A stretch of 64,000 nucleotides of DNA from an uncultured Verrucomicrobiae bacterium (GCA_963788655.1 CAWBHS010000076.1:32001-96000), one strand, 5' to 3'. Shown: positions 45,151 to 61,569, numbered from the stretch's first letter. Notes: generated by a model from the letters alone, not told the origin. Numbers and translations: made by a program.

Positions 45151-47604
45151 ATGCAAACAACGAACCGCCTTCTTAACATGCTCCAAGTGCTGCTCTTGTT
45201 CGCTGGCCTCGTGCCTGAAGTGGGCGCGGTGGAAGGGCTTCTGGCCACCCGTCCAGACCAATTCAAACCGGTCACCCTGGAGGGGGTCCAGCCAAAGTTT
45301 TCTATCCCGCCCGATTCCCGGCTGGCGCGGAATGAGCATCCCCGGTTCCTGGTCACTCGGGAGGACTTGGAGACGCTGCAAAGACGCCGGTCTGATCCGC
45401 GGTTGGCGGCGGAATTTGAAGCACTGAAGCGACAGGCTGACCGCGACCGGCCAACCGACTGCATCGGCTTGAAACGCGCGCTGCTCTGGAAATTCACCGG
45501 CGATCGGAAATACCTCGACGCCATCAAAAATTCCCCGGATTTCAAGCGGCCTGCATGGACGTTCAGTTGGCCGGCCATGATCGACCTGATCTGGGATGAC
45601 TTGACGGCAGCAGAACGCACCGAGCTGTCCGGCCTGGTGGTCAAAGCAGTGAGCAAGGATGGCGCTTTGTATTGGCGACCGACACTCCACCTCGTAAGTG
45701 TGTTCTACGAAGGTGGCCAGGGGCCGAATGACCCGGCTTTGCTGACGCGAATGAAACACGATTTTGACCAGACACTGATCCAATGGACCGACAAGTTGAA
45801 CCGTTGGGCCGCCGGACGCGGCGGTTCGGACATGAGCCACGGTTACAATGGCGAGCACGCTTACTGGGAGCCGTTCGTAGCCGCGATCGGTTGGTCGCAC
45901 GCCACGGGCGAGGATTACCTGAGCCGCGCTGACTTCACCAAATACCAAAGTGCCTTTTACTGGTATCACTTTGTGCCGGGACTGACTCCGCTCACAGTCG
46001 AGAAAATCGGCGTGACGCGCACCGCCGACGATCCCAGTGCGGTGACGCCGGCGCACAGCGGCGCGAATCACTTGCTCTTTCTAACGTTCACCCGCGAACA
46101 TGACGGCCTGGGGCTGGCCTGGATGGAAACGTTCCACGCCCAGGAACCCGCCTGGAACCGTGACCGCGAAGCGTTGGGCCGGTTCCTTTGGTGGGACCCG
46201 GATCAAAAGCAGCTCGATCCCACGACACTCCCAACCACGCGCCTTTTTCCCACATCCGGCCACGTGACCATGCGCTCGGACTGGGGTGAGGACGCGACTT
46301 TCGCCACGTTTCGCTGCGGGCGTTTCGGGGAGATCGATGGCACGTGGGGTCGAAACAATGCGGACAATCTCAGCTTCACGATTCGCAAGCGCGGACCGCT
46401 CGCCATTGATTCCGGGCCGGTGCATGGTCAGAACACGACGGTGCTCAAGTTCTACGGTGAAGGGAGCGACTCAGGCATTCCCGCCATCGGCAACTACGGG
46501 CGCCAGACCATCGCGCACAATTCCATCACCATCGGCGACGGCGAATACGTGCATCGCGATTGGCGGGGCCGCACGACGGGCAACGTGGTTCGGCGCGGCG
46601 GACAATCGGTTCCGCAGGCTCCGGATTGGTGGGCCCAATGGGGCTTCACCAACGCCCAGAACGATTTCATGGAGGGACGGATCACCGCCTACCGCACCCA
46701 TCCGCTTTATGATTACGCCTGCGGCGACGCCCGCTTCAGTTATCCGCCGGAATGGGGCGTCCAGGAAATCACGCGGCAGTTCATCTATCTCAAACCGGAC
46801 GTGTTTGTGATCTATGACCGGCTGGTGCTGGCCGATCCGGCGAAGAAGCCTTGCTGGATGCTGCACACTTTGCGCGAACCCAAAGCCAACGGCACGGAAA
46901 CGGCGCTGACACCGGAAGAGATCGGTCCCCAGTATTTCTGGAGCGGTCAGGGGAAAGTGCCGCATCCCAATCCCGGTGGGCAGGTGTGGATGGGGGGTGA
47001 TGGATTCACGGTGGAATCCGGTTCGCCAGGGAAGCCGGGCGGCGGATGGCTCCACGTCCGCACGCTGTACCCGACTGCCAATGATTGCGAACGCAAGAAG
47101 ATCGGCGGCAAAGGCCATGATTTCGAGGTGGGCGGCGTGCAATACGGTTTGAGCGACGAAGGCTATCAACAGGCCGAGAGCCCCTACGCCGTACGGAGCA
47201 CCATTGGGTTGCTGGGGTGGCGGGTGGAACTCCGGCCCCAAACGCCTTCCCGCAACGTGGAATTTCTGCACGTGCTTCAAGCTGGCTTGAACGGTCAGAC
47301 GCCCGACGCCGTTCTTAGCGCCACCCATGAAACCACCGCGGCGATGCAAGTCGTCACCGTGCAACAGGGCGCCCGGCGGTTCGTCCTTCACCTCAATCGC
47401 ACCGGCCCACGGGGCGGTTCCCTTTCCGCAAAGGATGAGACTATTTACATTGATGACTCGTTGCCAACGCAAGTGGAAGACCACTGGCGCTATTTCAAAA
47501 ACGACCCGCATTTCAAAGACTGGGTAACGGACCCGCGCTATCGAGTCGTCATTGAGCCGACCGCCCAAGACCGGCAGTGTCTGGAGCAGTTATTGCCTCG
47601 ATGA
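45151..47604 (+). CDS. Secreted heparinase II/III-like polysaccharide lyase
   Basis: Signal peptide; EHPRF; MRSDW; LAIDSG; TIAHNSI; Y..GDA; R.F.YL. Confidence 0.75.
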   Translation: MQTTNRLLNMLQVLLLFAGLVPEVGAVEGLLATRPDQFKPVTLEGVQPKFSIPPDSRLARNEHPRFLVTREDLETLQRRRSDPRLAAEFEALKRQADRDRPTDCIGLKRALLWKFTGDRKYLDAIKNSPDFKRPAWTFSWPAMIDLIWDDLTAAERTELSGLVVKAVSKDGALYWRPTLHLVSVFYEGGQGPNDPALLTRMKHDFDQTLIQWTDKLNRWAAGRGGSDMSHGYNGEHAYWEPFVAAIGWSHATGEDYLSRADFTKYQSAFYWYHFVPGLTPLTVEKIGVTRTADDPSAVTPAHSGANHLLFLTFTREHDGLGLAWMETFHAQEPAWNRDREALGRFLWWDPDQKQLDPTTLPTTRLFPTSGHVTMRSDWGEDATFATFRCGRFGEIDGTWGRNNADNLSFTIRKRGPLAIDSGPVHGQNTTVLKFYGEGSDSGIPAIGNYGRQTIAHNSITIGDGEYVHRDWRGRTTGNVVRRGGQSVPQAPDWWAQWGFTNAQNDFMEGRITAYRTHPLYDYACGDARFSYPPEWGVQEITRQFIYLKPDVFVIYDRLVLADPAKKPCWMLHTLREPKANGTETALTPEEIGPQYFWSGQGKVPHPNPGGQVWMGGDGFTVESGSPGKPGGGWLHVRTLYPTANDCERKKIGGKGHDFEVGGVQYGLSDEGYQQAESPYAVRSTIGLLGWRVELRPQTPSRNVEFLHVLQAGLNGQTPDAVLSATHETTAAMQVVTVQQGARRFVLHLNRTGPRGGSLSAKDETIYIDDSLPTQVEDHWRYFKNDPHFKDWVTDPRYRVVIEPTAQDRQCLEQLLPR

Positions 47605-48221: not shown

Positions 48222-49505
48222 GTGATAATTTCAGTGCTTACAGAAAATACCATAAATGCCGAATTTAACGAGGCGCGCGGCTGGATCTTCTACGACGCGG
48301 ACTGCGTGCTCTGCGTGCGAATCATGCGACGCGTTCGACGGTTGTTTGAAACGCGCGGATTCCACTGGCTGCCATTGCAATCGCCTGGAGCGGCGGCGCG
48401 GCTGGGCGTGAACGAAATTGCGTTCGCCACTCGCATGCACGTGCTCACCCAACGGGGTGGCGTGTTCCACAATGCCGACGCGCTGGGAATTCTTTGCCGT
48501 TCGGTCTGGTGGCTGTGGCCGCTGGGCGTCCTGCTCCTGGTGCCGGGCTTTCGCGGGCTTGCTCGCCTTGGCTATGATTGGATTGCCCGCCATCGCTATT
48601 GCTTGGGCGGACAGTGCGCTCGCCGGCCCGTGAAGCAAAGGTCAGCCGGCGTGGTCACTTGGATTCCCGCCGTGCTGTTGCCGATCTTGGCGTGGTTATG
48701 CACCCGGCACCTTCCGGCATGGCTGGTTATGTGGGCGTTGGCCTTCGCCCTGTTCGCCGGATGCAAATGGGCGACCTGCTGGGAAGCTTTCCGCGCTGGC
48801 CTGAACCCAAGCGGCAAACGTATCCTGGGCTACATATTTGTCTGGCCGGGGATGAATGCGCAGACGTTTTTCGACGAAAGCAAGGCGTTCGTGGTGGCGA
48901 GCAACGCCTGGGCCTGGGGACTGGCCAACTTGATTGGAGGCGCGGCTCTCGTCTGGGGAATTGTTCCGCAACTCATCGACGCGAAGCCGATGTTGGCCGG
49001 ATGGCTGGGGATGTTCGGGTTGGCGCTGATGTTGCATTTTGGGCTGTTCGCCCTGTTGGCCTGGGCGTGGAGGCGTGTCGGTGTGAACGCCACGCCGATT
49101 ATGCAAACGCCCGTGGCCGCGACGTCGTTGTCGGAATTTTGGGGAACGCGTTGGAACACTGCCTTTCATCAACTGGCGAATCGTTACGTGTTTCGTCCGC
49201 TGGCGCGTCGTGTCGGCGTCCGTATGGCGGCGATGGTGGTCTTCTTAACCTCAGGCTTGATTCACGACCTCGTCATCTCCGTTCCTGCGCATGCGGGCTA
49301 TGGATTACCCACGCTCTACTTTGCGATCCAGGGCCTGGGCGTACGGTTTGAACGAACTGGCATTGCCCGGAAACTTGGACTGGGAAATGGGCTCGCTGGT
49401 TGGTTGTTCACCATGGCGGTTACGGTGGGGCCGGCGGCTTTGCTGTTTCACCCGAAATTTGTCCACCATGTCATCGTGCCATTTCTGCGTGCCTTGGGCG
49501 CTTAA
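48222..49505 (+). CDS. DUF393 (DCC-family thioredoxin-like) fused to an MBOAT wax-synthase-like acyltransferase
   Basis: FYDADCVLC ... YDWIARHRY; then TM helices with SLSEFWGTRWN and SGLIHD. Confidence 0.85.
   Translation: MIISVLTENTINAEFNEARGWIFYDADCVLCVRIMRRVRRLFETRGFHWLPLQSPGAAARLGVNEIAFATRMHVLTQRGGVFHNADALGILCRSVWWLWPLGVLLLVPGFRGLARLGYDWIARHRYCLGGQCARRPVKQRSAGVVTWIPAVLLPILAWLCTRHLPAWLVMWALAFALFAGCKWATCWEAFRAGLNPSGKRILGYIFVWPGMNAQTFFDESKAFVVASNAWAWGLANLIGGAALVWGIVPQLIDAKPMLAGWLGMFGLALMLHFGLFALLAWAWRRVGVNATPIMQTPVAATSLSEFWGTRWNTAFHQLANRYVFRPLARRVGVRMAAMVVFLTSGLIHDLVISVPAHAGYGLPTLYFAIQGLGVRFERTGIARKLGLGNGLAGWLFTMAVTVGPAALLFHPKFVHHVIVPFLRALGA
48229..48246. promoter_or_regulatory. Palindromic operator candidate 2
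   Basis: TTTCAGT-gctt-ACAGAAA; same arms and spacing as site 1. Confidence 0.7.
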
Positions 49506-49523
49506 ACAAAGAAAGGAATTAGC

Positions 49524-49940
49524 ATGAAACTCGTCACCTTACTCCAACTCGCCGGAATTATGCACGTGGGCTTGATTGGGGCCGGCGCACTGATGCCCGG
49601 CGTCGTCGGTCTGCGCGCGCATCTGGCAAAGCTGCCGCCGTTCATCCGCCGACTGGTGTGGGTCTATTACACCTTCATCGGTTTTTGCCTGATTGCGTTT
49701 GGTAGCATGACCTTCTTCTTCGCGGACGCGATGGCGTCGGGAACGCCACTGGCACGGGCGTTGTGCGCTTTCTTCTGCTTGTTCTGGATGCTGCGATTGG
49801 TGGTGGCGACCTTCGTGTTCGACCTCCGGCCGTATTTGACCAATCGGTGGCGCCGCCTCGGTTACCACGCCACCAATATCGTGTTTGGGCTGCTTCCCAT
49901 CATCTATGGCTGGGCAGCCTTGAAGGGAGGACTGACATGA
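49524..49940 (+). CDS. Four-helix membrane protein
   Basis: Hydrophobic segments; AAGGA RBS; ATGA overlap with next gene. Confidence 0.75.
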   Translation: MKLVTLLQLAGIMHVGLIGAGALMPGVVGLRAHLAKLPPFIRRLVWVYYTFIGFCLIAFGSMTFFFADAMASGTPLARALCAFFCLFWMLRLVVATFVFDLRPYLTNRWRRLGYHATNIVFGLLPIIYGWAALKGGLT

Positions 49941-50722
49941 AGTCACCTATCAAATACGTCCGTGCGGTGATGACGCGACGGATTCTGGTCAATTTCCGGG
50001 TGCGACCGGAGGCCTTGCAAGCGGTGCTACCCGCGCCCTTCCGGCCCAAACTCATCAATGGTTGGGGCCTCGGCGGAATATGTCTGATCAAACTCCAACA
50101 CCTGCGACCTTGGTTCCTGCCCGACTTTGTCGGGACTTCCTCCGAAAACGCTGCCCATCGCATCGCGGTGGAGTGGACGGAGGCCGGTGTCATCCAAAGT
50201 GGCGTCTTCATCCCGCGCCGGGACACGAATTCAGTCGTCAACCTGCTGGCCGGCGGACGACTGTTTCCCGGAGCGCATCACTTTGCGCGGTTCCAATGCG
50301 CCGAGACGGAACAACAGTTTCAAGTCGCGCTGCGCAGCCGCGATGGGGAAACGGTTGTCCGGATCGAAGCCCACCTTGCGAATGAATGGCCGACGGGTTC
50401 CGTTTTCGCGTCGCTCGAACAAGCTTCGGCCTTTCTGAAGGAGGGAAACTGCGGCTGGTCGCCGTGTGAAGGCGGCCGCCATTTTGAAGGAGTTGAACTG
50501 CGCACCGAGCGTTGGGAAATGCAATCCCTCGCGGTGACGCATGTCCAATCCAGCTTCTTTTCGGACAAGCCTCGGTTCGCTCCCGGTAGCGTTGAGTTTG
50601 ACTCCGCACTGCTCATGCGCGGTATTCCACACACTTGGAACGCGCTGGAGTCTGGAAATTCCATCGTCTCTGTTCAACCCAGCAATCGCCACCGAACACG
50701 GACATTTCTCGAAATGCCGTGA
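49937..50722 (+). CDS. DUF2071 (YqjF-like) protein
   Basis: RRILVNFRV, GICLI.L, SENAAHRIAV, GVFIPRRDT. Confidence 0.85.
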   Translation: MKSPIKYVRAVMTRRILVNFRVRPEALQAVLPAPFRPKLINGWGLGGICLIKLQHLRPWFLPDFVGTSSENAAHRIAVEWTEAGVIQSGVFIPRRDTNSVVNLLAGGRLFPGAHHFARFQCAETEQQFQVALRSRDGETVVRIEAHLANEWPTGSVFASLEQASAFLKEGNCGWSPCEGGRHFEGVELRTERWEMQSLAVTHVQSSFFSDKPRFAPGSVEFDSALLMRGIPHTWNALESGNSIVSVQPSNRHRTRTFLEMP

Positions 50723-50763
50723 CGGCGATTCATGTCCACGCTTGATGCGCGCCAAACCAGCTT

Positions 50764-51696
50764 ATGAAAACGCAAGCGAACTACCTCACTCAGGTTGCCT
50801 GGCGAGATCTCGTGCCGCTCTCCACCGCCGAAAAGATGTGGGAACTCACGTTGCGCCTGCCGTGGCTTGGATTGTCATTGTGGCTTTACCAAGTCGGGTG
50901 GTGGCGGCTGGGAGCGATGGCCTCGTTTTACTTCTTTTTGACTGGTCTGCGGCAGTCCCACAATGCCCAACACTATTCGCTCGGACTTTCGCACCGAATC
51001 CAGGACACGATTTTGTTCATCCTGAGCGGGCTGATGCTCGCCAGCATGCATGCGGTGCAAGTGACACATTTGCACCATCACCGCCACTGTCTTGCGGAGG
51101 CTGACGTGGAAGGCGCGACGGCGCGGAAAGCCTGGTGGCGGGCCTTGCTGGAAGGACCGCTGTTCATTGGGCGGCTGCACTGGTTTGCCTGGCAGTTGGC
51201 GGGCCGCGTCAAGCGCCGGTGGATCCTCGCTGAATTGGCGGTGATGGCCGCATGGCTTGGACTGGTTTTCGGGGTTTTCAAATGGCCGGCCTGGCGTTGG
51301 CACGCGGGAGCCATGCTGGTGGGCGAATGTTTCGCGGCGTTCTTTGCGGTATGGACGGTTCATCACGACTGCGATTCCGACGCGGCCATCGGGCGGACCC
51401 AACGCGGCCGATGGTGGACGGCTCTGACTTACAGCATGTTTCTCCACGCCGAACATCATCTTTTTCCCGCGGTGCCTACGATTCACCTCGCCCGGTTGGC
51501 GGAACGGCTCGACGCCGCCGGCTTGAATTACCAACCTCAGAGTGTGTTTAAAACGGGTAGCCGCCAACCTCAGAACGCGGATTCGCCAGAGTCAAGTGGC
51601 CAAAACGTCCACCTCCTTGCGTCGGTGGCTACAGGATTACGGAATGTCAAAACATGCCCAGAGGTCAACTTGGGCCGGAGCCGAGCAAGACTATGA
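50764..51696 (+). CDS. Membrane fatty-acid desaturase-family protein
   Basis: His boxes HNAQH, HLHHH, H.EHH; C-terminus extended by a REP-derived segment. Confidence 0.88.
   Translation: MKTQANYLTQVAWRDLVPLSTAEKMWELTLRLPWLGLSLWLYQVGWWRLGAMASFYFFLTGLRQSHNAQHYSLGLSHRIQDTILFILSGLMLASMHAVQVTHLHHHRHCLAEADVEGATARKAWWRALLEGPLFIGRLHWFAWQLAGRVKRRWILAELAVMAAWLGLVFGVFKWPAWRWHAGAMLVGECFAAFFAVWTVHHDCDSDAAIGRTQRGRWWTALTYSMFLHAEHHLFPAVPTIHLARLAERLDAAGLNYQPQSVFKTGSRQPQNADSPESSGQNVHLLASVATGLRNVKTCPEVNLGRSRARL
51540..51659. repeat. Degenerate family-A REP/MITE copy inside the desaturase 3' end
   Basis: GTAGCCGCCAAC ... CCTCCTTGCGTCGGTGGCTAC between TIR-like GAGTGTGTTTAAAA and AAAACATGCCC. Confidence 0.65.
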
Positions 51697-52649
51697 AACG
51701 TGAACGCATGATCATCGCCGGGGGCAGTGGTTTTCTCGGCCACGTTTTGCGGACCTACTTTCTCCAACGCGGATTTGAAGTGCTGGTGCTGACCCGCTCG
51801 GCGGGCAACGGGCCGGGCAATAATCGGAGCCGCGATTGCTACTGGGATGGTCGGACGTTGGGCGAATGGGCGCAGAAACTTAAAGGCGCTGACGTGCTCA
51901 TCAATCTCGCCGGGCGTTCCGTGAACTGCCGCTATCACGCGCGCAACCGCCAACTCATGATGGATTCGCGCGTCCATTCGACGCGGGTGCTCGGCGAAGC
52001 GATTGCCCGTTGCGAGTGTCCACCACGCGTGTGGCTCAACTCCAGCACCGCCACCATTTATCGGCACACCCTCGGTCCGGCCTGGGATGAGGCGGGCGAA
52101 ATCGGATCAACACCTGAGGCGAAGGACGCGTTTTCCGTTGAAGTAGCGACCGCGTGGGAACGGGTATTCCACGAAGCCGTCACGCCGGGCACCCGGAAGG
52201 TCCAGTTGCGTTCGGCCATGGTGCTGGGGCTCGGATTGAACAGCGTCTTTCCCATGCTGCAACGACTCGTGCGGTTCGGGCTGGGCGGAATGATGGGCAG
52301 CGGCCGGCAGTTCGTTTCGTGGATTCACCAAACAGATTTCTGCCGCGCGGTCGAATTTCTCATTCGGGGGGAGGAGTTCAGCGGGCCAGTGAATCTCGCG
52401 TCGCCTAATCCGCTGCCAAACGTGGAAATGATGCGCATTCTGCGTGAGGTGTGTGGAGTGCCGTTCGGCTTGCCGGCCCCAGAGTGGATGCTGGAGATCG
52501 GCGCCTTCCTGCTGCGCACCGAAACTGAACTGATCATCAAAAGCCGGCGCGTCGTGCCCGGAAAGTTGCTGGCGGCTGACTTCGAATTTCAATTCCCATA
52601 CCTTCGCGATGCCTTCGAGAATTTGTGCGCTCTTGAGAAGAAGCAGTAA
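51693..52649 (+). CDS. TIGR01777-family NAD-dependent epimerase (DUF1731 C-terminus)
   Basis: IAGGSGFLG, INLAGRSVNCRY, SWIH, KSRRVVP. Confidence 0.92.
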   Translation: MKRERMIIAGGSGFLGHVLRTYFLQRGFEVLVLTRSAGNGPGNNRSRDCYWDGRTLGEWAQKLKGADVLINLAGRSVNCRYHARNRQLMMDSRVHSTRVLGEAIARCECPPRVWLNSSTATIYRHTLGPAWDEAGEIGSTPEAKDAFSVEVATAWERVFHEAVTPGTRKVQLRSAMVLGLGLNSVFPMLQRLVRFGLGGMMGSGRQFVSWIHQTDFCRAVEFLIRGEEFSGPVNLASPNPLPNVEMMRILREVCGVPFGLPAPEWMLEIGAFLLRTETELIIKSRRVVPGKLLAADFEFQFPYLRDAFENLCALEKKQ

Positions 52650-53793: not shown

Positions 53794-56529
53794 TCAGTCT
53801 GTCTCCGCCAACAGCGTCAGCCAGAATGGATTCCCGGACGTGCCGTCAGGAGGCGGGTTAGCCAGGAAGATTTTGGAGCCGAGGTGTTCACCGAGCTGGC
53901 GGTAACTTTCCCATTGGGCCTCGTCGAAGAACTGGTCCGCCGTGCTCTGATGGGGGAAGTCAGGATTCTCCAGCATGTAGTTGCGGACGTTCGGCGGTTC
54001 ATCGCCCAGCAAGGTTGCCTTCACGTAGAGCAGCACCGAGCTCGTGTCTGTATCCGGGTAGTTGATGCGGAACAACGCGGCGCATTTCTTGGCCGGCTCA
54101 GTGATCCGACCGTCGGCGTCGCGGGTGGGCGTCATCTCATCAAACGTCCCGCCGTGCGGTCCCGGCACGGCCAATTGGTCGCGCACCGGACGGAAATACT
54201 CGCGCCATTGCTGTTTGGCATCCTTGCTTGCACCGGGGCGGGTGGTGGCCAGGCGGTCCACGGCGTCGTTCCATTCCTGGTCGGTGAACAGGTCCAGTTG
54301 CGCCTGGAAATCGATCCGCACTTTGCGCTGGAAGTTGGCGAAGTCGTCGAAGTCGTAATCACTGTCCGCGCCCGCATCGATGACGATCATGTACGGGACG
54401 CGGCGTCGCACCAGTTCGTAGGCGCCCAGGTTTTCGAAATGCCCGCCATCGGACAAATACCACAAGCGCGACCACGGCCCGGGAAAGCGCGCCAAGGCTT
54501 CGTCGAGCAGGCAACTTTGCGTGGGAAAAATGTGCGGCAGGAGCCACAGCAGCCGCCGCGAGAACGAGACGTGCGGCCGCATTCCGCGATCGGCGGCGCT
54601 CAGTCCGGTATCCCACCAGTAACCGGTGCGCAAGCCGCTCATAGTAAACAAAAAGGAGAGCGCCAGGCTGGTGTGCTGGCCCATGCCGGAACCGAAAGCC
54701 GCCCCCGAGATGGCCATCCACCGCCGCAGCGGCATGCTTTCGAGCCGCTCTTGCGTACCGCACCACGACGGGCGGACCGGCGGCGGATTGCCGCGGATGT
54801 CCAGCAACGGATGGGCAGTGCCGGGCACTTGGCCGACCGCGAATTGCGGCGCGTCCCACAGCCCGTGCCAATACCGTCCGATGCTCAGGCCGAGCGGACT
54901 GACGGCGAGGATGTTTCCCAAACGGTCGCGCGATTCGCGCAAGGTCAATTGGTCCACGGTCTCGTTTACGCAAGTTCCCAAAAGGTGCAACGGCCCGCCC
55001 GCCTTGAACGGTTGGTAGGCGGTCAGCGAATCGGTGTCGTCTCCGGGCATGACCTGGTCGATGTCGCGTCCCATGCGGTTGCGACTGGCCTGGCGCAACG
55101 GGTTCGACGCGCCGAGGTAAGCCCCCGCCAGGCGCGCCGCGTACGTTTGGTTAAGCGACGAACGATTGATGAACGGCAGCGACACGGGAAAGGCGAACAG
55201 GATCGAAAGAAACAAACCGCCGAGCACGAGCATCTCTCCGCGACGCGGCGTGTCGCCTCCGCCAAAGGTGGCATGACTCAGCAGGCACACCACGACGGTG
55301 GGTGGGGCAATCAACATCACCGCCACCAACGCGTTCACGGCCGGCAGGGAAAGCCAGCGCGTCAACGAGCTGGGATTTTTGTTTTTGGACTGCCATTGCG
55401 AAACCATCCTGGCGGTGAACTGCAACACGGGTAACAAACCCACCAGGACCGCACCCACCTGGGCCAGCGCGGCGAGGTAAGATTGGTTGTGGCGCAGGTA
55501 GGCTTCGTACACGGCGTGAGCCGCCGTGTCCACGAACGCAAATCCCAACAAGCTAAGGCCCAGGGCCAGCCACAATCCCAGGTCCAACGTTAGAATTGCC
55601 CGCGCGCGCAAGCGTTCGATCGAGTCGCCGCCGGTGCCGACGGCCGCATTCTGCAGCCGCACTTGCCACCAGGCGTGCTCGACAAAGAGGAACGATGCCA
55701 ACAACGGAACTGCCGCCAGCGCGGTGGTAGTGTTCCACCCGTTGCGCACCGTCAGCGAGAGCAGAACGGTGAGCACGAAAAAAGTGGCGCCCAGGATGGC
55801 GCAGTTGTAGCGCTCGGGCCAGCGCGGCGAAACGAGCCAATAGCCGATGCCGCGCGGAATAATGAACACCAGCAACACCAATTCGAACAGCATGAACCAC
55901 GGGCTCCAAAACGCTCCCAAGCCGCCGGCTTCCACCAAGTGCCCCAAGGGCATGTCTGCCCAATCGAGTCCGCCAATGTACGGAAACACCGCGGAGACTT
56001 TTTCCAACAGATCGTAACGAAGCGTGTTGGCCACCCCAAACGCCACGAACGCGATCAAGCCCACCACCAAGTGCAACGTCAAAAAATTCCGGAAGAAGAT
56101 CCCCAGGTTGGTGTGCAGGTCGCTCTTGCCGTTGGGGGCGATGTAGTTCCCGTGCCGCCGCAACCAGGTGATTTCCGGCGACTGCGGGTCCACTAATGCG
56201 CCTTCCACCAAGTCCGCCGGCGGAACCGGCGAGCCGCGGAGCCGGTCGAAGAATCGTCCCAGGAAGCAGCCGATGTAGCCGCCGCCGGAGATGGTCGAGA
56301 GCACGTCAACACGCCGAAGCAAGTGATGCTTCGCCAGCGCCTGCAACATCCCCAGGTTGAACGTCGCGCTGCGAATGCCTCCGCCGGATAGTCCCAGTCC
56401 CAGGGTGTCTTTCGGTAACTGACCATCGGCGGCATCTCCGACCGGCAGCCCACAAGTGGTCCGCCGCTCGTGAATGGCGGCGCTCTCCGCGCGGCGGAGT
56501 TCCGACGGGTAAATTTGGAAAGGTTCCAT
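53794..56529 (-). CDS. Multi-TM patatin/cPLA2-like phospholipase
   Basis: LSGGGIRSA oxyanion motif, STISGG (Ser), SDGGHFENLG (Asp); many TM helices between the two. Confidence 0.85.
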   Translation of the reverse strand: MEPFQIYPSELRRAESAAIHERRTTCGLPVGDAADGQLPKDTLGLGLSGGGIRSATFNLGMLQALAKHHLLRRVDVLSTISGGGYIGCFLGRFFDRLRGSPVPPADLVEGALVDPQSPEITWLRRHGNYIAPNGKSDLHTNLGIFFRNFLTLHLVVGLIAFVAFGVANTLRYDLLEKVSAVFPYIGGLDWADMPLGHLVEAGGLGAFWSPWFMLFELVLLVFIIPRGIGYWLVSPRWPERYNCAILGATFFVLTVLLSLTVRNGWNTTTALAAVPLLASFLFVEHAWWQVRLQNAAVGTGGDSIERLRARAILTLDLGLWLALGLSLLGFAFVDTAAHAVYEAYLRHNQSYLAALAQVGAVLVGLLPVLQFTARMVSQWQSKNKNPSSLTRWLSLPAVNALVAVMLIAPPTVVVCLLSHATFGGGDTPRRGEMLVLGGLFLSILFAFPVSLPFINRSSLNQTYAARLAGAYLGASNPLRQASRNRMGRDIDQVMPGDDTDSLTAYQPFKAGGPLHLLGTCVNETVDQLTLRESRDRLGNILAVSPLGLSIGRYWHGLWDAPQFAVGQVPGTAHPLLDIRGNPPPVRPSWCGTQERLESMPLRRWMAISGAAFGSGMGQHTSLALSFLFTMSGLRTGYWWDTGLSAADRGMRPHVSFSRRLLWLLPHIFPTQSCLLDEALARFPGPWSRLWYLSDGGHFENLGAYELVRRRVPYMIVIDAGADSDYDFDDFANFQRKVRIDFQAQLDLFTDQEWNDAVDRLATTRPGASKDAKQQWREYFRPVRDQLAVPGPHGGTFDEMTPTRDADGRITEPAKKCAALFRINYPDTDTSSVLLYVKATLLGDEPPNVRNYMLENPDFPHQSTADQFFDEAQWESYRQLGEHLGSKIFLANPPPDGTSGNPFWLTLLAETD

Positions 56530-56548
56530 AATCGAAGTGAATTGATTT

Positions 56549-58548
56549 TTACTGCCGCCAGGCCGCCTGGATCGTGTCCGCCGCTTTTTCGCTGGCCATG
56601 TAAATGTCCGTCACGATGAAGTAACCGGGAATGCGCCAGAAGATCGAAGCATCCACCACGCGCAAGCCCGCCACCGGTTTGCGGCGACCATTTTCGTCCG
56701 GTTGGTCCAGCACCCGGAACTGGCTGTCCAATACCGCGGACGGATCGCCCGCCCGGCCCATCCGGCAAGTGCCGCAAGCGTGATGCCCCCAGGCTTCACG
56801 CTTGATCCATGCTTTAACCTCGGCGTCGGATTGGCAACTGGCGCCGGGATGGTCTTCGTTTTTCAAGCCGGCGCAATGGGCGATCTTGCGGACGAATTTC
56901 ACCCCCTCGATCAGGGCCTCCAAATCCGGGTCGTCGTCGGTGCAATCCGGGCGCGACACTTCCTGAAAATAGTGAAAGTTGATTTCCGGGCGATCGCGGG
57001 GATCGGTCCGTTTTGAGTCGTCACTTGGCCGTCGCGATTGGCGGTGTGTGATTTCAAAATGGCCCAGGTGAACAGATCACGTTCCGGCACCCGGGAGTAG
57101 CCGCGGAAGTAGCCGTAGAACTTCAACGGAATGCCGAAGATGAAGAGGTTGGGCTGGGGCACATCCGGGCGCGAACGCTTGAGGATCGCCAGGACGGCGC
57201 CGTTGCTGGCGTACAGTCCACTGCCGTCCTGACGCCACCGGGTCATTGGTTCGTCGGGCTGACCGTTCGCGGTGGGCATCGCGAGCGTGGCGCCATGCAA
57301 TAACTCGAAGTTCTCCGGCATTTTGCTGACAACCGTGACTTCGTAGCGATCCTGGAGGTTCCGTCCCACGCCCGGCGAAGGCACCAGACATTGGATGCCG
57401 AGGTCTTCGAGGTGTTGCTTCGGCCCGATGCCGGAGAGCATCAGCAATTGCGGTGTGTTGAACGCGCCGCCGGACAGGACCACCTCGCGACGGGCGTGAA
57501 CGCGACCGGCGGTTCCGTCCTGCGTCGAAGGATTGGGCACCGCTCGGTAGAGCTTGTCCCCAAGGCGGTATTCGACACCCGTCGCCCGCCATCCGCCTTG
57601 GCCATCAGCGTCGAGCAAGACTTTCGTGACCAAACAATCAGAAACGATCGTCAGCCGTTCCGGGTAGGTGCGCTGCACCGCTTGCAACCGCTCACGCGGA
57701 CTCGAACGGTGACCGCGCCTCGCCGTGTCATCTGTCTTTGGGCCGCAAATAGCCGTTGGAATCAAAGCGACGCCTGCGGGACGTTGTGCCTGCCGGCGCG
57801 CGTGGTTTGGGTCCAGTTCCTCAAAACCTTCGCCGGCCAGAATTCGTTTGATCAAACGTTTGGGTGGAGCTTCCAGTCCGGTCAAAACCGCGGCAGCGAC
57901 CGCGCCAAACAACATCCCGAGAAGCTGCTTGTCTCCCAATCCAATGCTCAGGTCCACGGTGCTCGTGTGCAGCCATCCGCCAAAGCCGTGACGCCCGCGC
58001 GTGGGATCGACTTCCCGGCCGAAGAGCCAACGCACGTGTTCGAGAGCTTTCTTCCAGGGCGTGGTGGGGCGCGGTTCGGGCAACGGGAGGAATTCGCAGT
58101 GCTCGATCTTTTCGAAGTAAGTCCGCATCGTGTCCGCCCGCCACGAACCATCCCCGAGGAACCACGCCAGTTCGTCCCAATCCGAATCGGGCCCGGCGAT
58201 GGTGATCATGGCGTTGTGGACCGTGCAGCCGCCGATGCCCGTGGCGCGCGGGTAAAAAATCCCCTGCTCTTGCTGGTCCCATTTCGGGTCCGGCGATTTC
58301 GGCTGGTCGTAGTGTTTGACGAAGAATTGCCAGCTTATCTCCGGATTCTCCGAGGCCGGTCCGTGCAAGACGGGGACCTGGGTAATCTCCTCTTCCTTGA
58401 ATTGGCCCGGCCCCGCTTCAAGCACCAACACATGCCATCCGTTCTCGGCCAATCGCGCTGCCAGCGGAGCTCCGCCGGCGCCCGATCCCACGATGATGAT
58501 ATCATACGGGCTGTCCTCGGGAGAGGTGGTCTTGGCGATGGTAGCCAT
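56549..58548 (-). CDS. GMC-family FAD oxidoreductase; frameshift near 57010
   Basis: GSGAGG, YPRATGIGGCT.HN, GGAFNTPQLLMLSGIG, WGHHACGTC, LRVVDAS. Confidence 0.93.
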
Positions 58549-58638
58549 AATTGATTCGTTACCTGGGGAGCGCGCCCGCCTCGGGCGCAGTGGTTGGCGC
58601 CTCGCCAACCAGCTCTGCCCCGCGGGCACGAACTCGTT

Positions 58639-61569
58639 TTAGAACGTTTTCATTAATTCGATGAGCGCTTCCTTGTCGTCGTCGCTCAAGTCCCGGAACC
58701 AGGGAAAATAGTGTCCCTTGTCCATGACAAAATCAGGACACTTGCTGACGCGCAGGAGCGCGGGAGCGATCTCCGTCCGAAGCACCTCCAATTTATCCTG
58801 GTCCTGCAAATGCCGGGTCTCGATTTCTGCCAGGGCATTCAGGGTCGTTTTGAGCGTCCGCTTCAGATGTCTGGTGCCGGCATCGGGATTGATGTTGGCC
58901 AGCAAGTCCACCGGCGTGCCGGCCGGAATGGGGCCCAGCCGCAAGTCACCCAGACCGCCCGCGAGGAAATAGATGAACAGTCCGAGCACCAACGCCAGAG
59001 CCAGTGACGCGTAGCCCGCCAACCGCTCAAGCCGGCCCGCGCGATTGGCCCCGCGGCTGACCAACAACAGCACGAGCGCCGCTACCAGCAGGACAATGCT
59101 GGGCACGGCCTTCCATTTTCCCCAGCTTTCGAGGACATCGGCCAGTTTGTCGAGCGCCGACGGCCAGGGAAGCCGGCGCGCGAAAGCCGGCACGTGTTTG
59201 GCGGGAATGATGATGTAGGTTTCGCAAGGCGTTCGCCAAATCAGGCCGTGATCGCGCGCCAATTGTTCGGCCGATGCGTAATTCGTGTTCTGCGCGCGCT
59301 GATCCAGCCAGAGCAGTTTGTGAACGGCATCGTCGAACGCAGCCAATCGTCCTTTCACCGACGGATCGTTGTTGAACAAACCCAGACTGTTATTGTGCAG
59401 AAAGGGCGCCGTCGCCCAAATCGACATCAACGACGCCGGCCGGTAGAAACCGGGTCCGCCGCCGCCGGGTGGACCGCCGTTCAAAGTGCGGTGCCGGGGC
59501 GTGAAGAAGTCGTCTTCTCCGTTCGGGCCTTTGTAAGGATTGAAGAACGGGATGGAACCAATTGAGGCCATGCCCTTGTAACTTGCCGAGGAAAAGTCTT
59601 CCCATAGATGGCCGCTCGTCCCGTTGTTGGCCATCGCGCGTTTCGGATTGGTGCCGACGTAGTTCACCGGCACGCGAAAGTCCGTGGAGAGAAAGTTTAA
59701 GCGCCAGAACTCAGGCAGCTCGACGATTTGCGTTGCCCAAGCAGCGTAATCGTCGCGCCGCAGCCATTGGCCGGGATCGTGATCCCACAATTCGCCCCGT
59801 TGCTCGCACTCAACGATGCTCTTCTTGCGGTCGGCAATCAGCGCCGCGTTGGTCTGCAGGTAGGCCTCCAAGTCAGCCTCTTTTTGCACCAGAAGGCGGG
59901 GATTCGTTTCGGGTTGAACGCTCGAATGGCAAACGATGCAGTTCCGGGCAAACACCCGCCGTCCGCGCGCCAGTTTATCGATGTGAATTCGTTTCTCAAC
60001 GTCGTCCGGTCCCCGCGCATCGAGCAACGGCATGCTGGGCGTGATCTTCAGAAAGTAATCGCGCAAAGCGCCAACGCGCAGTTGCGTAGCCCGCCAATAA
60101 AGCGAGTGTTCCCGGCAATCCTTGATGGTGAAGGGCAACTGGGTCCGGACGCGTTGCTCGGCGTTGGTCGCAGCTTTGGGCGGCAGGAAACCAATCAGCG
60201 GTTCGTGCAGCCGAATCCATTGCTCCGAGTAAGTGCCGATGTTCAGATACACCCGCGCCAATGCTCCCCAAACGCCAATCGAATCCGCGCCATCCAAAAG
60301 CACCCGCGGCACCCAGCGCGGATTCTTGTTGGAATCTTTCAGTTCCGGAATCAGGTTTGTGTACATCGCCGGCGGATCATTTGTTGGATCCCACCACAAT
60401 GAAGGCAGGTTCGTACTGTCGCCGGCCAGTTGTTCGCGCGGATTTTGAAACGAGCGCAAGATACGTTGCGGCACGCCAAAGATGGCGTTCATCGTGTTCG
60501 GATTGTTGATATTGTCGCTGGCGATGAGGGAGGTGTCGATGGTTCCCGGTGGCTGGCTGTCGAGCACGTGATAGACAAAATTATTGGTCGGCAGCAGGTT
60601 GCCGAAGATCGCGCGGATACGGAGGTATTGGCTGCCAATCGAGCCGGATAAGTTTTCCCAGCGCGGATTGGCTGGGTCTTGCGGCGGATTGAGCGGATGC
60701 GCGCTGGCATGGCAAAAGGCGCAACTCATCCCCACGCGAAACGGCCGGACCAGCTTGGGATCGCTGTAATAGCTTGAGTCCCGATAATATTTGCGCGCAT
60801 CCCATTGCTGCTGGGCGCGGGCATCGAAGTTCGGATTGGGAAACAGCCGGAGTCCGATGACCCCGCTGGACAAACCGTAGATGCGCCATGGAGGAACATT
60901 CGAATAGGCGCCGGTTTCGCCGTAAGGATCGTTTTGGTATTGCGCTGTGGCGGGGTCACCCGAAAAGACCTCCTTTAGCACTTTCCGCCGGTATTCACGT
61001 TCAGTCTCACCGACCGGTTGATCCAGCCAGAGGCCAAACTCGCCATCGGCGGGCTTAACGGTCTCGCGCATTTCCGGTTCGTTGACCATCCCGGCATTGT
61101 GCCAGCGCTGGCCGCGTTTCCGGCTGTCCAACAGTTTGAGCAGGTCCATGAAACCCAGACTGTGATCCGCCAGCCAATCCCAAAAGGCCTCATTGCCCCC
61201 GCACCAAATCATCCAGGTATTCCGGCCCAGCACCTCGCTGGGAGTTGCCACCGGATCCATCAGCACGCGGGCGCCGCGCTGCGGATGCAGGTCGAGCAAT
61301 GGGTCCGGCCAGGTTTCAAGCAGGTTCGTCGAGGTGCTGCCCGCGGGCGCGCTGATCACATCCATGCCCCGGAAGTAATTGACGATGAGTTGGGGATAGA
61401 ATTCGCGAGCGGCTTGATCCGGGGTCTTACCGGCGGCCTTGGCGGCGGCCATGGCTTCGTCGTCGGGTACCCCGCTGGAAGAATAATCGGCGGCAGACAA
61501 CGTTGCGGCCCACGTCAGGACGCCGAATAAACCCAGGCGGCACAGGCTGGTCAAGTTCATAAGAATCAT
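58639..61569 (-). CDS. Exported di-heme c-type cytochrome, RoxA/CCP-MauG-like, with a TM hairpin
   Basis: Signal peptide; CAFCH and CIVCH; SIWATAPFLHNNS; GHYF...LSDDDKEALIE.MKTF. Confidence 0.8.
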   Translation of the reverse strand: MILMNLTSLCRLGLFGVLTWAATLSAADYSSSGVPDDEAMAAAKAAGKTPDQAAREFYPQLIVNYFRGMDVISAPAGSTSTNLLETWPDPLLDLHPQRGARVLMDPVATPSEVLGRNTWMIWCGGNEAFWDWLADHSLGFMDLLKLLDSRKRGQRWHNAGMVNEPEMRETVKPADGEFGLWLDQPVGETEREYRRKVLKEVFSGDPATAQYQNDPYGETGAYSNVPPWRIYGLSSGVIGLRLFPNPNFDARAQQQWDARKYYRDSSYYSDPKLVRPFRVGMSCAFCHASAHPLNPPQDPANPRWENLSGSIGSQYLRIRAIFGNLLPTNNFVYHVLDSQPPGTIDTSLIASDNINNPNTMNAIFGVPQRILRSFQNPREQLAGDSTNLPSLWWDPTNDPPAMYTNLIPELKDSNKNPRWVPRVLLDGADSIGVWGALARVYLNIGTYSEQWIRLHEPLIGFLPPKAATNAEQRVRTQLPFTIKDCREHSLYWRATQLRVGALRDYFLKITPSMPLLDARGPDDVEKRIHIDKLARGRRVFARNCIVCHSSVQPETNPRLLVQKEADLEAYLQTNAALIADRKKSIVECEQRGELWDHDPGQWLRRDDYAAWATQIVELPEFWRLNFLSTDFRVPVNYVGTNPKRAMANNGTSGHLWEDFSSASYKGMASIGSIPFFNPYKGPNGEDDFFTPRHRTLNGGPPGGGGPGFYRPASLMSIWATAPFLHNNSLGLFNNDPSVKGRLAAFDDAVHKLLWLDQRAQNTNYASAEQLARDHGLIWRTPCETYIIIPAKHVPAFARRLPWPSALDKLADVLESWGKWKAVPSIVLLVAALVLLLVSRGANRAGRLERLAGYASLALALVLGLFIYFLAGGLGDLRLGPIPAGTPVDLLANINPDAGTRHLKRTLKTTLNALAEIETRHLQDQDKLEVLRTEIAPALLRVSKCPDFVMDKGHYFPWFRDLSDDDKEALIELMKTF

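Follow-up and report, generated by a model that had tools for sequence, protein, structure and literature searches.

A conserved gene cassette of a di-haem cytochrome, a GMC flavoenzyme and a membrane-embedded patatin-like lipase with a possible role in membrane lipid oxygenation

In eukaryotes, oxygenated lipids are major signals and damage markers. The bacterial routes to such lipids are, to our knowledge, few, and comprise lipoxygenases and the di-haem diol synthase of Pseudomonas. PA2077 and PA2078, which resemble the di-haem cytochrome c peroxidases (CCPs; bCCPs for the bacterial enzymes) and are described as oxygenating oleate (PMC4496055), are by analogy the best functional precedent for a di-haem c-type protein that acts on lipids. 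In the rubber oxygenase RoxA, the N-terminal haem is described as carrying H195 and bound O2 and the C-terminal haem as bis-histidine ligated (H394 and H641), while the histidine of its so-called MauG motif (H517) is given as no haem ligand (PMC6311187). The surroundings of the N-terminal haem of RoxA, with its open or O2-bound distal site, include F317 and W302. Here we analyse a stretch of 64,000 nucleotides (the window, to which coordinates refer unless a locus is named) from an uncultured Verrucomicrobiae bacterium (GCA_963788655.1 CAWBHS010000076.1:32001-96000). On the minus strand of the window, between positions 53794 and 61569, three large genes lie head to tail and encode a di-haem cytochrome, a GMC flavoenzyme and a patatin-like lipase, as a preliminary description of this DNA had reported. 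We find that the three genes make up a functional unit, in many cases fused, that is conserved among bacteria from soil and water belonging to many phyla, and we suggest, with a probability of about 0.4, that they form a single module, centred on the membrane, by which an unsaturated membrane lipid is first oxygenated and then processed.

The conservation of the unit was established from relatives of the cytochrome in a collection of species-representative genomes (one genome per species), which yielded at least 595 stretches; the best 80 loci were studied and span Verrucomicrobiota, Planctomycetota, Acidobacteriota, Pseudomonadota, Eremiobacterota, Methylomirabilota and Binatia. A GMC homologue is present in 63 of these 80 loci and lies directly downstream of the cytochrome on the same strand in 48, a patatin-like homologue is present in 39, and all three genes occur together in 36. 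GMC and patatin constitute a single open reading frame (ORF) of about 1580-1630 aa in 15 loci, with one more case cut by a contig end, and GMC::patatin fusions are also found as many database proteins of 1520-1595 aa. The stop and start of the GMC and cytochrome genes overlap in two loci (L034 and L035). The gene order is variable, with patatin upstream in L031 and L032, yet the linkage is still kept. The GMC gene is missing from 17 of the 80 loci, in five of which the flank on one side is shorter than 3 kb. The preliminary description had named genes unlinked in other genomes as the result that would speak against it; the neighbourhood survey found that the linkage holds. The same neighbours recur in loci of many phyla, and the arrangement is far beyond chance.

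Within its own phylum, the cytochrome is rare (5/401 sampled genomes, the source genome included). The four other cytochrome-positive genomes all carry a patatin gene, in three of them on the contig of the cytochrome and about 2.5 to 4.5 kb from the cytochrome match, but these genomes are kin and hence not independent counts. On a wider scale, a library of 1.84 billion contains 1837 representative proteins that match the core of the di-haem protein at E<=0.001. Our literature search, which left most subscription journals outside, found no paper on a cassette of di-haem, GMC and patatin genes. Although each part falls into a known superfamily, both the family and the architecture are uncharacterised.

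The cytochrome gene (58639..61569, minus strand) encodes a protein of 976 residues that we describe, from its ORF, translation, homologues and fold search, as a predicted exported and membrane-tethered di-haem c-type protein. The signal-like N-terminus, the two CxxCH motifs and the sequence WATAPFLHN, all pointed out earlier, are located in the translation. The first haem motif, CAFCH (residues 283-287, with C283, C286 and H287; 60709..60723, minus strand), marks the candidate catalytic haem, and the second, CIVCH (residues 544-548, with C544, C547 and H548; 59926..59940, minus strand), binds haem 2; the two cysteines and the histidine of both motifs are invariant in 78/78 relatives. The MauG motif, WATAPFLHNN (residues 718-727; 59389..59418, minus strand), is of the P-[YF]-x-H-N-x-S type, and its W718, A721 and P722 are invariant in the same relatives. 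We located it in the sequence and through a partial match to PF21419. Hydropathy indicates a two-helix membrane hairpin at residues about 820-874 (58948..59112, minus strand), with helices at about 820-838 and 856-874 and a positively charged, Arg-rich connecting loop. The hairpin is a lineage-specific insertion: among the 78 relatives, this region has no hydrophobic segment in 46, two in 19 and three to six in 10. We note that the Planctomycetota cytochromes (L020, L022, L025, L029, L033-L035) carry a membrane insertion with four to six predicted helices, compared to two in the window protein.

The C-terminal domain (residues 876-976; 58642..58944, minus strand) contains the sequence CPDFVMDKGH, whose histidine, H953, is kept in 77/78 relatives and is the sole near-invariant histidine outside the CxxCH motifs. 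Because the membrane hairpin is an insertion absent from most relatives, we consider the C-terminal 100 residues with H953 to be part of the enzyme core. By analogy with H641 of RoxA, H953 is a candidate sixth ligand of haem 2, which would then be ligated by H548 and H953. At haem 1, no distal His or Met is conserved across the 78 relatives, and we infer that this haem is the reactive site.

The family of this protein is less easily named. It has 1278 homologues at E<=0.001 among 8000 candidates, all unnamed or labelled 'mono/diheme cytochrome c family', and a protein Atlas search with it gave nothing but clusters that are unnamed or generically labelled cytochrome c. The match to PF21419 is confined to residues 709-728 and scores 23.6 bits against a cut-off of 26.7; the model for di-haem cytochrome c peroxidase, NF040606, reaches 44 bits over residues 521-728 (E 1.7e-11), where its cut-off is 150. 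The core (residues 225-800) was modelled with AlphaFold2 from a 78-sequence alignment (pLDDT 80.3), and the model was compared to 48,161 chains with VIA-align. Ranks 1-7 all belong to the bCCP/MauG/RoxA superfamily, with 195-263 residues aligned: MauG (Z 6.5, rmsd 4.9, 239 aligned), YhjA (Z 5.6, 195 aligned), an MbnH-like protein (6e1c; Z 5.5, 203 aligned), hydrazine synthase gamma (Z 5.5, 196 aligned), BccP (Z 5.4, 199 aligned), RoxA (4b2n; Z 4.6, rmsd 4.5, 263 aligned) and BthA (Z 4.5, 234 aligned). Rank 8 drops to Z 3.3. This list of modelled matches is coherent, though the scores are modest. No PDB entry was matched by Foldseek at E<=0.001 with either the full or the core model, and VIA-align with the full model returned only helical-hairpin look-alikes to residues 801-876.

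On the two CxxCH motifs, the MauG motif and the shared fold of the model, we place the haem protein in the bCCP/MauG/RoxA superfamily. The preliminary description had called it RoxA-like, and that label survives at the level of the superfamily, given the top seven folds, but not at the level of RoxA. Membership of the RoxA family was rejected: PF21419 is below cut-off, hhalign against a PF21419-positive protein (L054:9885-11480, 63.4 bits) aligns only 26 columns with 11.5% probability, and MauG is structurally nearer. In the structural comparison, MauG came out best at Z 6.5, and RoxA reached only Z 4.6. Nor is WATAPFLHN the RoxA signature it was taken for, as this is the general MauG motif, described as common to RoxA, RoxB and MauG (PMC6311187). 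E. coli is reported to fail as a host for making RoxA-type cytochromes (PMC6311187).

The third gene (53794..56529, minus strand) encodes a 911-residue protein that Pfam, a family profile and motifs identify as a membrane-embedded acyl hydrolase of the cPLA2/patatin type. Its motifs are SGGGIRS at the oxyanion hole (residues 48-54; 56368..56388, minus strand; S48, G49, G51, R53 and S54 invariant in 46/46 sequences), ISGGG around the nucleophile S81 (residues 80-84; 56278..56292, minus strand; S81, G82, G83 and G84 invariant in 46/46) and SDGGH with the catalytic D694 (residues 693-697; 54439..54453, minus strand; D694 and G696 invariant in 46/46). The GGGxR/K oxyanion motif, the Ser nucleophile and the Asp of DG[GA], which together form a Ser-Asp dyad, are what we take to be the defining residues of patatin/cPLA2 acyl hydrolases. 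The preliminary description had recognised this set as GGGxR / SxSGG / DGG and was right to do so; it did not mention that a polytopic membrane insertion of about eight helices (residues about 149-451; 55177..56085, minus strand), predicted from hydropathy and loop charges, splits the catalytic domain. Seven of the hydrophobic helices are clear and one is weaker. We favour an even number because S81 and D694 must share one side of the membrane. The sequence thus predicts a cPLA2/patatin-type Ser-Asp hydrolase split by about eight membrane helices.

This protein has 3628 homologues at E<=0.001 among 8000 candidates, and its nearest relatives (46-62% identity) are stand-alone proteins of about 890-935 aa. 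The best solved relative of the family profile is cPLA2-delta (PDB 5ixc, E 0.011), and the alignment covers the region from the helix before GGGxR through the nucleophile. When 11 patatin-like ORFs from related loci were compared to Pfam, Patatin was found at E<=0.01 in eight, six of them above the gathering score (30.6-34.8 bits).

The middle gene is more awkward. It had been described as a GMC flavoenzyme, and the family assignment is sound, but it is not a single ORF in this assembly, a break that was overlooked. The 5' piece (57011..58548, minus strand, from the ATG at 58548) carries the FAD motif GSGAGG and, by hydropathy, a hydrophobic insertion at residues about 210-228, and matches Pfam GMC_oxred_N (PF00732) with 77 bits. 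The 3' piece (56549..57010, minus strand) lies in a different frame, carries the catalytic-His motif GHHACGTCRMG and ends at the stop codon 56549-56551; it matches GMC_oxred_C (PF05199) with 73.3 bits. The break falls at a run of four A (57011..57014, minus strand), where relatives, with their uninterrupted ORFs, are in frame, and the subfamily motifs are kept on both sides of it. In the same assembly, the region of rpoB and rpoC (G000 contig C45, 51013-58956, outside the window) is also broken: rpoB is split into three pieces over two frames, and rpoC into five or more, with one in-frame TGA. Indel errors seem to be frequent in this assembly. Because the essential rpoB and rpoC are broken alike, we consider the break in the GMC reading frame to be, in all probability, an error of assembly. 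Public contigs placed on the region leave the site 57011-57014 uncovered. Programmed frameshifting at the A-run was considered and rejected: there is no usual slippery heptamer, the relatives are in frame, and essential genes are broken too.

With the intact relative L017 as query, the solved structures closest to the GMC protein are those of choline oxidase (E 1.3e-34) and, next, fatty acid photodecarboxylase (E 2.5e-32), and the motif histidine aligns with the active-site histidine of choline oxidase. In 41 of 54 linked GMC proteins the FAD motif is at most 25 residues from the first possible start, and there is therefore no room for a signal peptide. The other linked GMC proteins have no recognisable leader, save that of L087 (L087:4130-6112, plus strand), a Methylomirabilota metagenome-assembled genome, which is the only one (1/54) with a Tat-type leader (RRTFLK); in that lineage the flavoenzyme may be periplasmic.

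The location of the three proteins bears directly on what they could do together. The haem protein must be periplasmic, because c-type haem attachment requires export. The lipase is predicted from its loop charges to have its N-terminus inside, which places its catalytic halves, together with the GMC domain fused ahead of them in relatives, in the cytoplasm. We therefore predict a haem enzyme in the periplasm with the GMC enzyme and the lipase catalytic domain in the cytoplasm. Partners on opposite faces of the membrane would have to share a substrate that is membrane-borne or membrane-permeant, most likely a membrane lipid. A complex prediction between the membrane block of the lipase (residues 120-480) and the hairpin with the C-terminal domain of the cytochrome (residues 790-976) came out as weak support, with a score of 0.55, compared to 0.00 for the best of three controls, with at least 92% contact agreement between runs and partner pLDDT of at least 71; we do not count these values as evidence. 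The mark used was reached by 116/157 solved complexes and 2/215 mismatched pairs, and among those passing it, scores of 0.60 or below were given by 18 of the 157 solved complexes and by both mismatches.

Larger cassettes, in which the cytochrome-GMC pair is accompanied by further genes, occur in Acidobacteriota, Pseudomonadota and some Verrucomicrobiota. A catalase-related protein of about 400 aa is found in 24/80 loci; its best solved profile match is coral allene oxide synthase (E 0.05), its protein Atlas label is 'catalase family' (score 0.99), and our reading of the alignment finds T-H and RxxxY motifs like those of catalase-related enzymes. Catalase-related allene oxide synthases and lyases are described as acting on fatty-acid hydroperoxides (PMC5617202). 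An allene-oxide-synthase-like domain of this kind is fused to the GMC enzyme, with no patatin, in two proteins of about 1040-1060 aa (L048:792-3914, minus strand; L068:3313-6498, plus strand). A DyP-type peroxidase is present in 19/80 loci (TIGR01413, E 4.9e-22, below cut-off) and old yellow enzyme in 6/80, and a second cytochrome paralogue and true RoxA-like proteins (PF21419, 63.4 bits) are also seen. The genes for allene-oxide-synthase-like, DyP-type and old yellow enzymes fit oxidised fatty-acid chemistry, but they bear on the family and not directly on the locus in the window. We also note two further conserved genes after the GMC::patatin fusion (L019:17889-20588, L022:17932-20411, L037:17940-20474 and others), of about 464 aa in 15/80 loci and about 366 aa in 14/80; neither matches Pfam or NCBIfam, and neither was found in the source genome.

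We suggest the following mechanism. The exported di-haem protein would be tethered by its helical hairpin to the outer face of the cytoplasmic membrane, where the N-terminal haem (H287, with no conserved distal ligand) could activate O2 or peroxide on an acyl or isoprenoid chain, in the manner of RoxA and of PA2077/PA2078, while the C-terminal haem (H548, probably with H953) serves as a six-coordinate helper. The oxidised lipid would then move to the cytoplasmic face, perhaps via the eight-helix domain, where the Ser81-Asp694 dyad of the cPLA2/patatin enzyme could cleave off the acyl chain and the FAD-dependent GMC enzyme would oxidise a hydroxyl of the released product. Our analysis establishes the families of the three proteins, their catalytic residues, a predicted topology and the conservation of both linkage and fusions; the substrate, the activities and the pathway steps are our inference. 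A lipid-oxidation system had been proposed in the preliminary description, and the accessory genes of the larger cassettes fit this theme, but its linear order, from lipase to haem enzyme to GMC enzyme, ignores the topology.

Several observations weigh against the oxygenation of a membrane lipid. The structural Z-scores are low (4.5-6.5), and the nearest neighbour, MauG, modifies a protein and not a lipid; phmmer and profile searches of the PDB reach only the generic cytochrome c haem-binding helix, with RoxA and CCPs not listed, and the RoxA-specific models are not reached (23.6 against 26.7 bits for PF21419; 26 columns by hhalign). H725 of the MauG motif is kept in 27/27 close relatives yet only in 47/78 of the wider family. 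Pfam Patatin (PF01734) scores 24.7 bits on the window lipase, below the cut-off of 27.7. In twelve of the 17 loci that lack a GMC gene, the sequence extends 3 kb or more beyond the cytochrome gene in both directions, and these include L015, among the closest relatives by identity. The membrane that separates the haem enzyme from its two partners excludes any simple soluble pathway, and how the steps are ordered is a guess. Finally, the catalase-related, DyP-type and other accessory genes were not found in a search of the source genome, which has only distant matches like old yellow enzyme on other contigs, and the lipid-hydroperoxide context is therefore borrowed from distant relatives. Of the readings that we considered, lipid oxygenation is nevertheless favoured, followed by the closely related one of repair with a peroxidase, whilst protein modification and a respiratory complex are less likely.

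Some eukaryotic PLA2s remove acyl chains that are already damaged, and bCCPs and YhjA are peroxidases. The cassette could by the same token repair or detoxify peroxidised membrane lipid: at the outer face the di-haem protein would serve as a peroxidase, with lipid hydroperoxides or H2O2 as its substrate, the patatin would remove damaged acyl chains, and the GMC enzyme would dispose of the hydroxy-acid. Linkage and topology support this as well as they do oxygenation, true peroxidases are among the structural neighbours (YhjA, Z 5.6; BccP, Z 5.4), NF040606 matches the haem-2 domain (E 1.7e-11), and the larger cassettes include DyP-type peroxidase and catalase-related genes. We still regard repair as rather unlikely, as the Met ligand that follows the MauG motif in bCCPs is not conserved, no electron-donor gene is linked, the peroxidase family models are far under their cut-offs (44 against 150 bits), and the rarity of the cassette in its phylum (5/401 genomes) would be odd for a general repair function.

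MauG modifies methylamine dehydrogenase and MbnH modifies MbnP, and the rank of MauG as the top structural match (Z 6.5, 239 aligned), with the MbnH-like 6e1c at Z 5.5 and the MauG motif present, raises the prospect that the di-haem protein oxidatively matures a partner protein or peptide. That partner might be a periplasmic loop of the lipase membrane domain. On this reading, the membrane reaction of the lipase and flavoenzyme would be a separate matter. We judge this improbable: the membrane insertion is lacking in 46/78 relatives, which are soluble, and the loci of 28 of these are without a patatin gene; no conserved gene for a small periplasmic substrate was found beside the cassette in the window; and the accessory genes in relatives suggest small-molecule redox chemistry.

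Membrane-bound flavoprotein-cytochrome c dehydrogenases pair an exported (Tat) flavoprotein with a multi-haem electron-carrier subunit. A respiratory arrangement modelled on such sugar and alcohol dehydrogenases, with the GMC enzyme oxidising an alcohol and passing electrons to the di-haem cytochrome, would account for the close adjacency of the two genes (48/80 directly downstream; the stop/start overlap in L034 and L035) and the Tat-type leader in L087, but is very improbable, since 41/54 GMC proteins have no room for a leader and only 1/54 is Tat-like, which should leave the others in the cytoplasm opposite the haems, since the fold of the cytochrome, with its two haems and large insertions, is that of a bCCP/MauG enzyme and not of an electron-carrier subunit, and since no small-subunit gene is linked.

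If oxygenation of a membrane lipid is the function, the cassette would constitute, and this we put forward only tentatively, a lipoxygenase-independent trans-membrane pathway in which one membrane lipid is acted on from the periplasmic side by the di-haem oxygenase and from the cytoplasmic side by the lipase-flavoenzyme, via the eight-helix domain, and which would make or clear oxygenated acyl chains. Such a pathway would be found in Planctomycetota, Verrucomicrobiota, Acidobacteriota and Pseudomonadota and would add a candidate route of lipid oxygenation in phyla that are abundant in soil and water. Next to RoxA and FadCcp (the PA2077/PA2078 type), the di-haem family would then form a third functional branch, and it could provide new enzymes for the selective oxygenation of C-H or C=C bonds. 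Culturable carriers (Rhodopirellula, Stieleria, Paludisphaera, Terriglobus and Chromobacterium) make the cassette directly testable.

The layout of the locus itself agrees with what had been reported for it: the coordinates and the common orientation are confirmed, on the minus strand, and the gaps given as about 90 and 20 nt measure 90 nt from the cytochrome stop to the GMC ATG and 19 nt from the GMC stop (TAA) to the patatin ATG. A genome search found the cytochrome gene to be single-copy in the source genome, whose assembly consists of 115 contigs and is 86% complete. A public contig of 198 nt, which may be from the same sample, is identical over 56421-56618 and spans the GMC stop and the patatin start. 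With this contig and the stand-alone nearest patatin relatives, the split form of GMC and patatin is probably real in the source lineage. One run of public reads contained 15% of the sampled words, and no RNA dataset is listed among the public runs containing such words. Scans for promoters (2 found, 2.2 expected) and terminators (14 found, 10.8 expected) were at the level of shuffled sequence, and PADLOC gave no match for any of the four protein pieces.

The genes flanking the cassette sit on the opposite strand. Upstream is a divergent pair of methionine-biosynthesis genes, and the convergent downstream neighbours (48222-52649, plus strand) have a lipid-modifying look: MBOAT_2 fused to a DCC1-like thiol-disulfide oxidoreductase domain, DUF2071, a fatty-acid desaturase and an NAD-epimerase with DUF1731. 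We considered these as parts of the system and rejected them, as none of the flank genes checked (the fatty-acid desaturase, MBOAT/DCC1, DUF2071, the epimerase, two small ORFs and a methionine-biosynthesis gene) was found in any of the 80 related loci at E<=1e-8. Because no flank gene recurs, the conserved unit is just the three genes. An 817-residue ORF with a heparinase II/III-like C-terminal domain (45151-47604, plus strand) is unrelated to the cassette.

Among described systems, RoxA and RoxB (Steroidobacter cummioxidans 35Y; PDB 4b2n) resemble the window protein in being exported, in their two CxxCH haems, in the MauG motif and in the loop-rich insertions on a bCCP core, and the near-invariant H953 could act like RoxA H641 (PMC6311187). 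They differ in that there is no significant sequence similarity to the window protein, whose haem motifs are 261 residues apart (199 in RoxA) and which has an extra N-terminal domain of about 190 aa and the membrane hairpin; its gene neighbours are a lipase and a flavoenzyme and not rubber-degradation genes. The FadCcp enzymes of P. aeruginosa (PA2077, a 10S-dioxygenase, and PA2078, a 7,10-diol synthase) are alike, by description only, as di-haem CCP/RoxA-related periplasmic oxygenases of free unsaturated fatty acid, and differ, again by description, in being soluble paralogue pairs with no linked GMC or patatin gene as far as described (PMC4496055). MauG, MbnH and the bacterial CCPs (PDB 3l4m, 6e1c, 3o5c, 9qdt) share the di-haem arrangement and the MauG motif (Z 6.5 to 5.4), but are proteins of 300-420 aa, in contrast to the 976 aa of the window protein with its extra domains and hairpin, and the positions of the bCCP Met and MauG Tyr ligands are not recognisably conserved in the window family.

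The lipase has GGGxR, Ser in xSGx and Asp in DGG in common with group IV cPLA2 (cPLA2-delta, 5ixc) and with patatin-like phospholipases of the VipD and ExoU type. Unlike these, its catalytic domain is split by about 300 residues (about eight helices), it has no C2 or effector domains, and it is fused to the GMC enzyme in many relatives. Like GMC oxidoreductases such as choline oxidase, fatty acid photodecarboxylase and alcohol oxidases, the flavoenzyme has both GMC domains in full, N-terminal as well as C-terminal, along with the FAD motif and a catalytic His. Opposite the Asn stretch of choline oxidase, the L017 alignment places hydrophobic residues. The window enzyme is further set apart from other GMC oxidoreductases by its hydrophobic insertion, and its relatives by their C-terminal fusion to the lipase or to a catalase-related domain.

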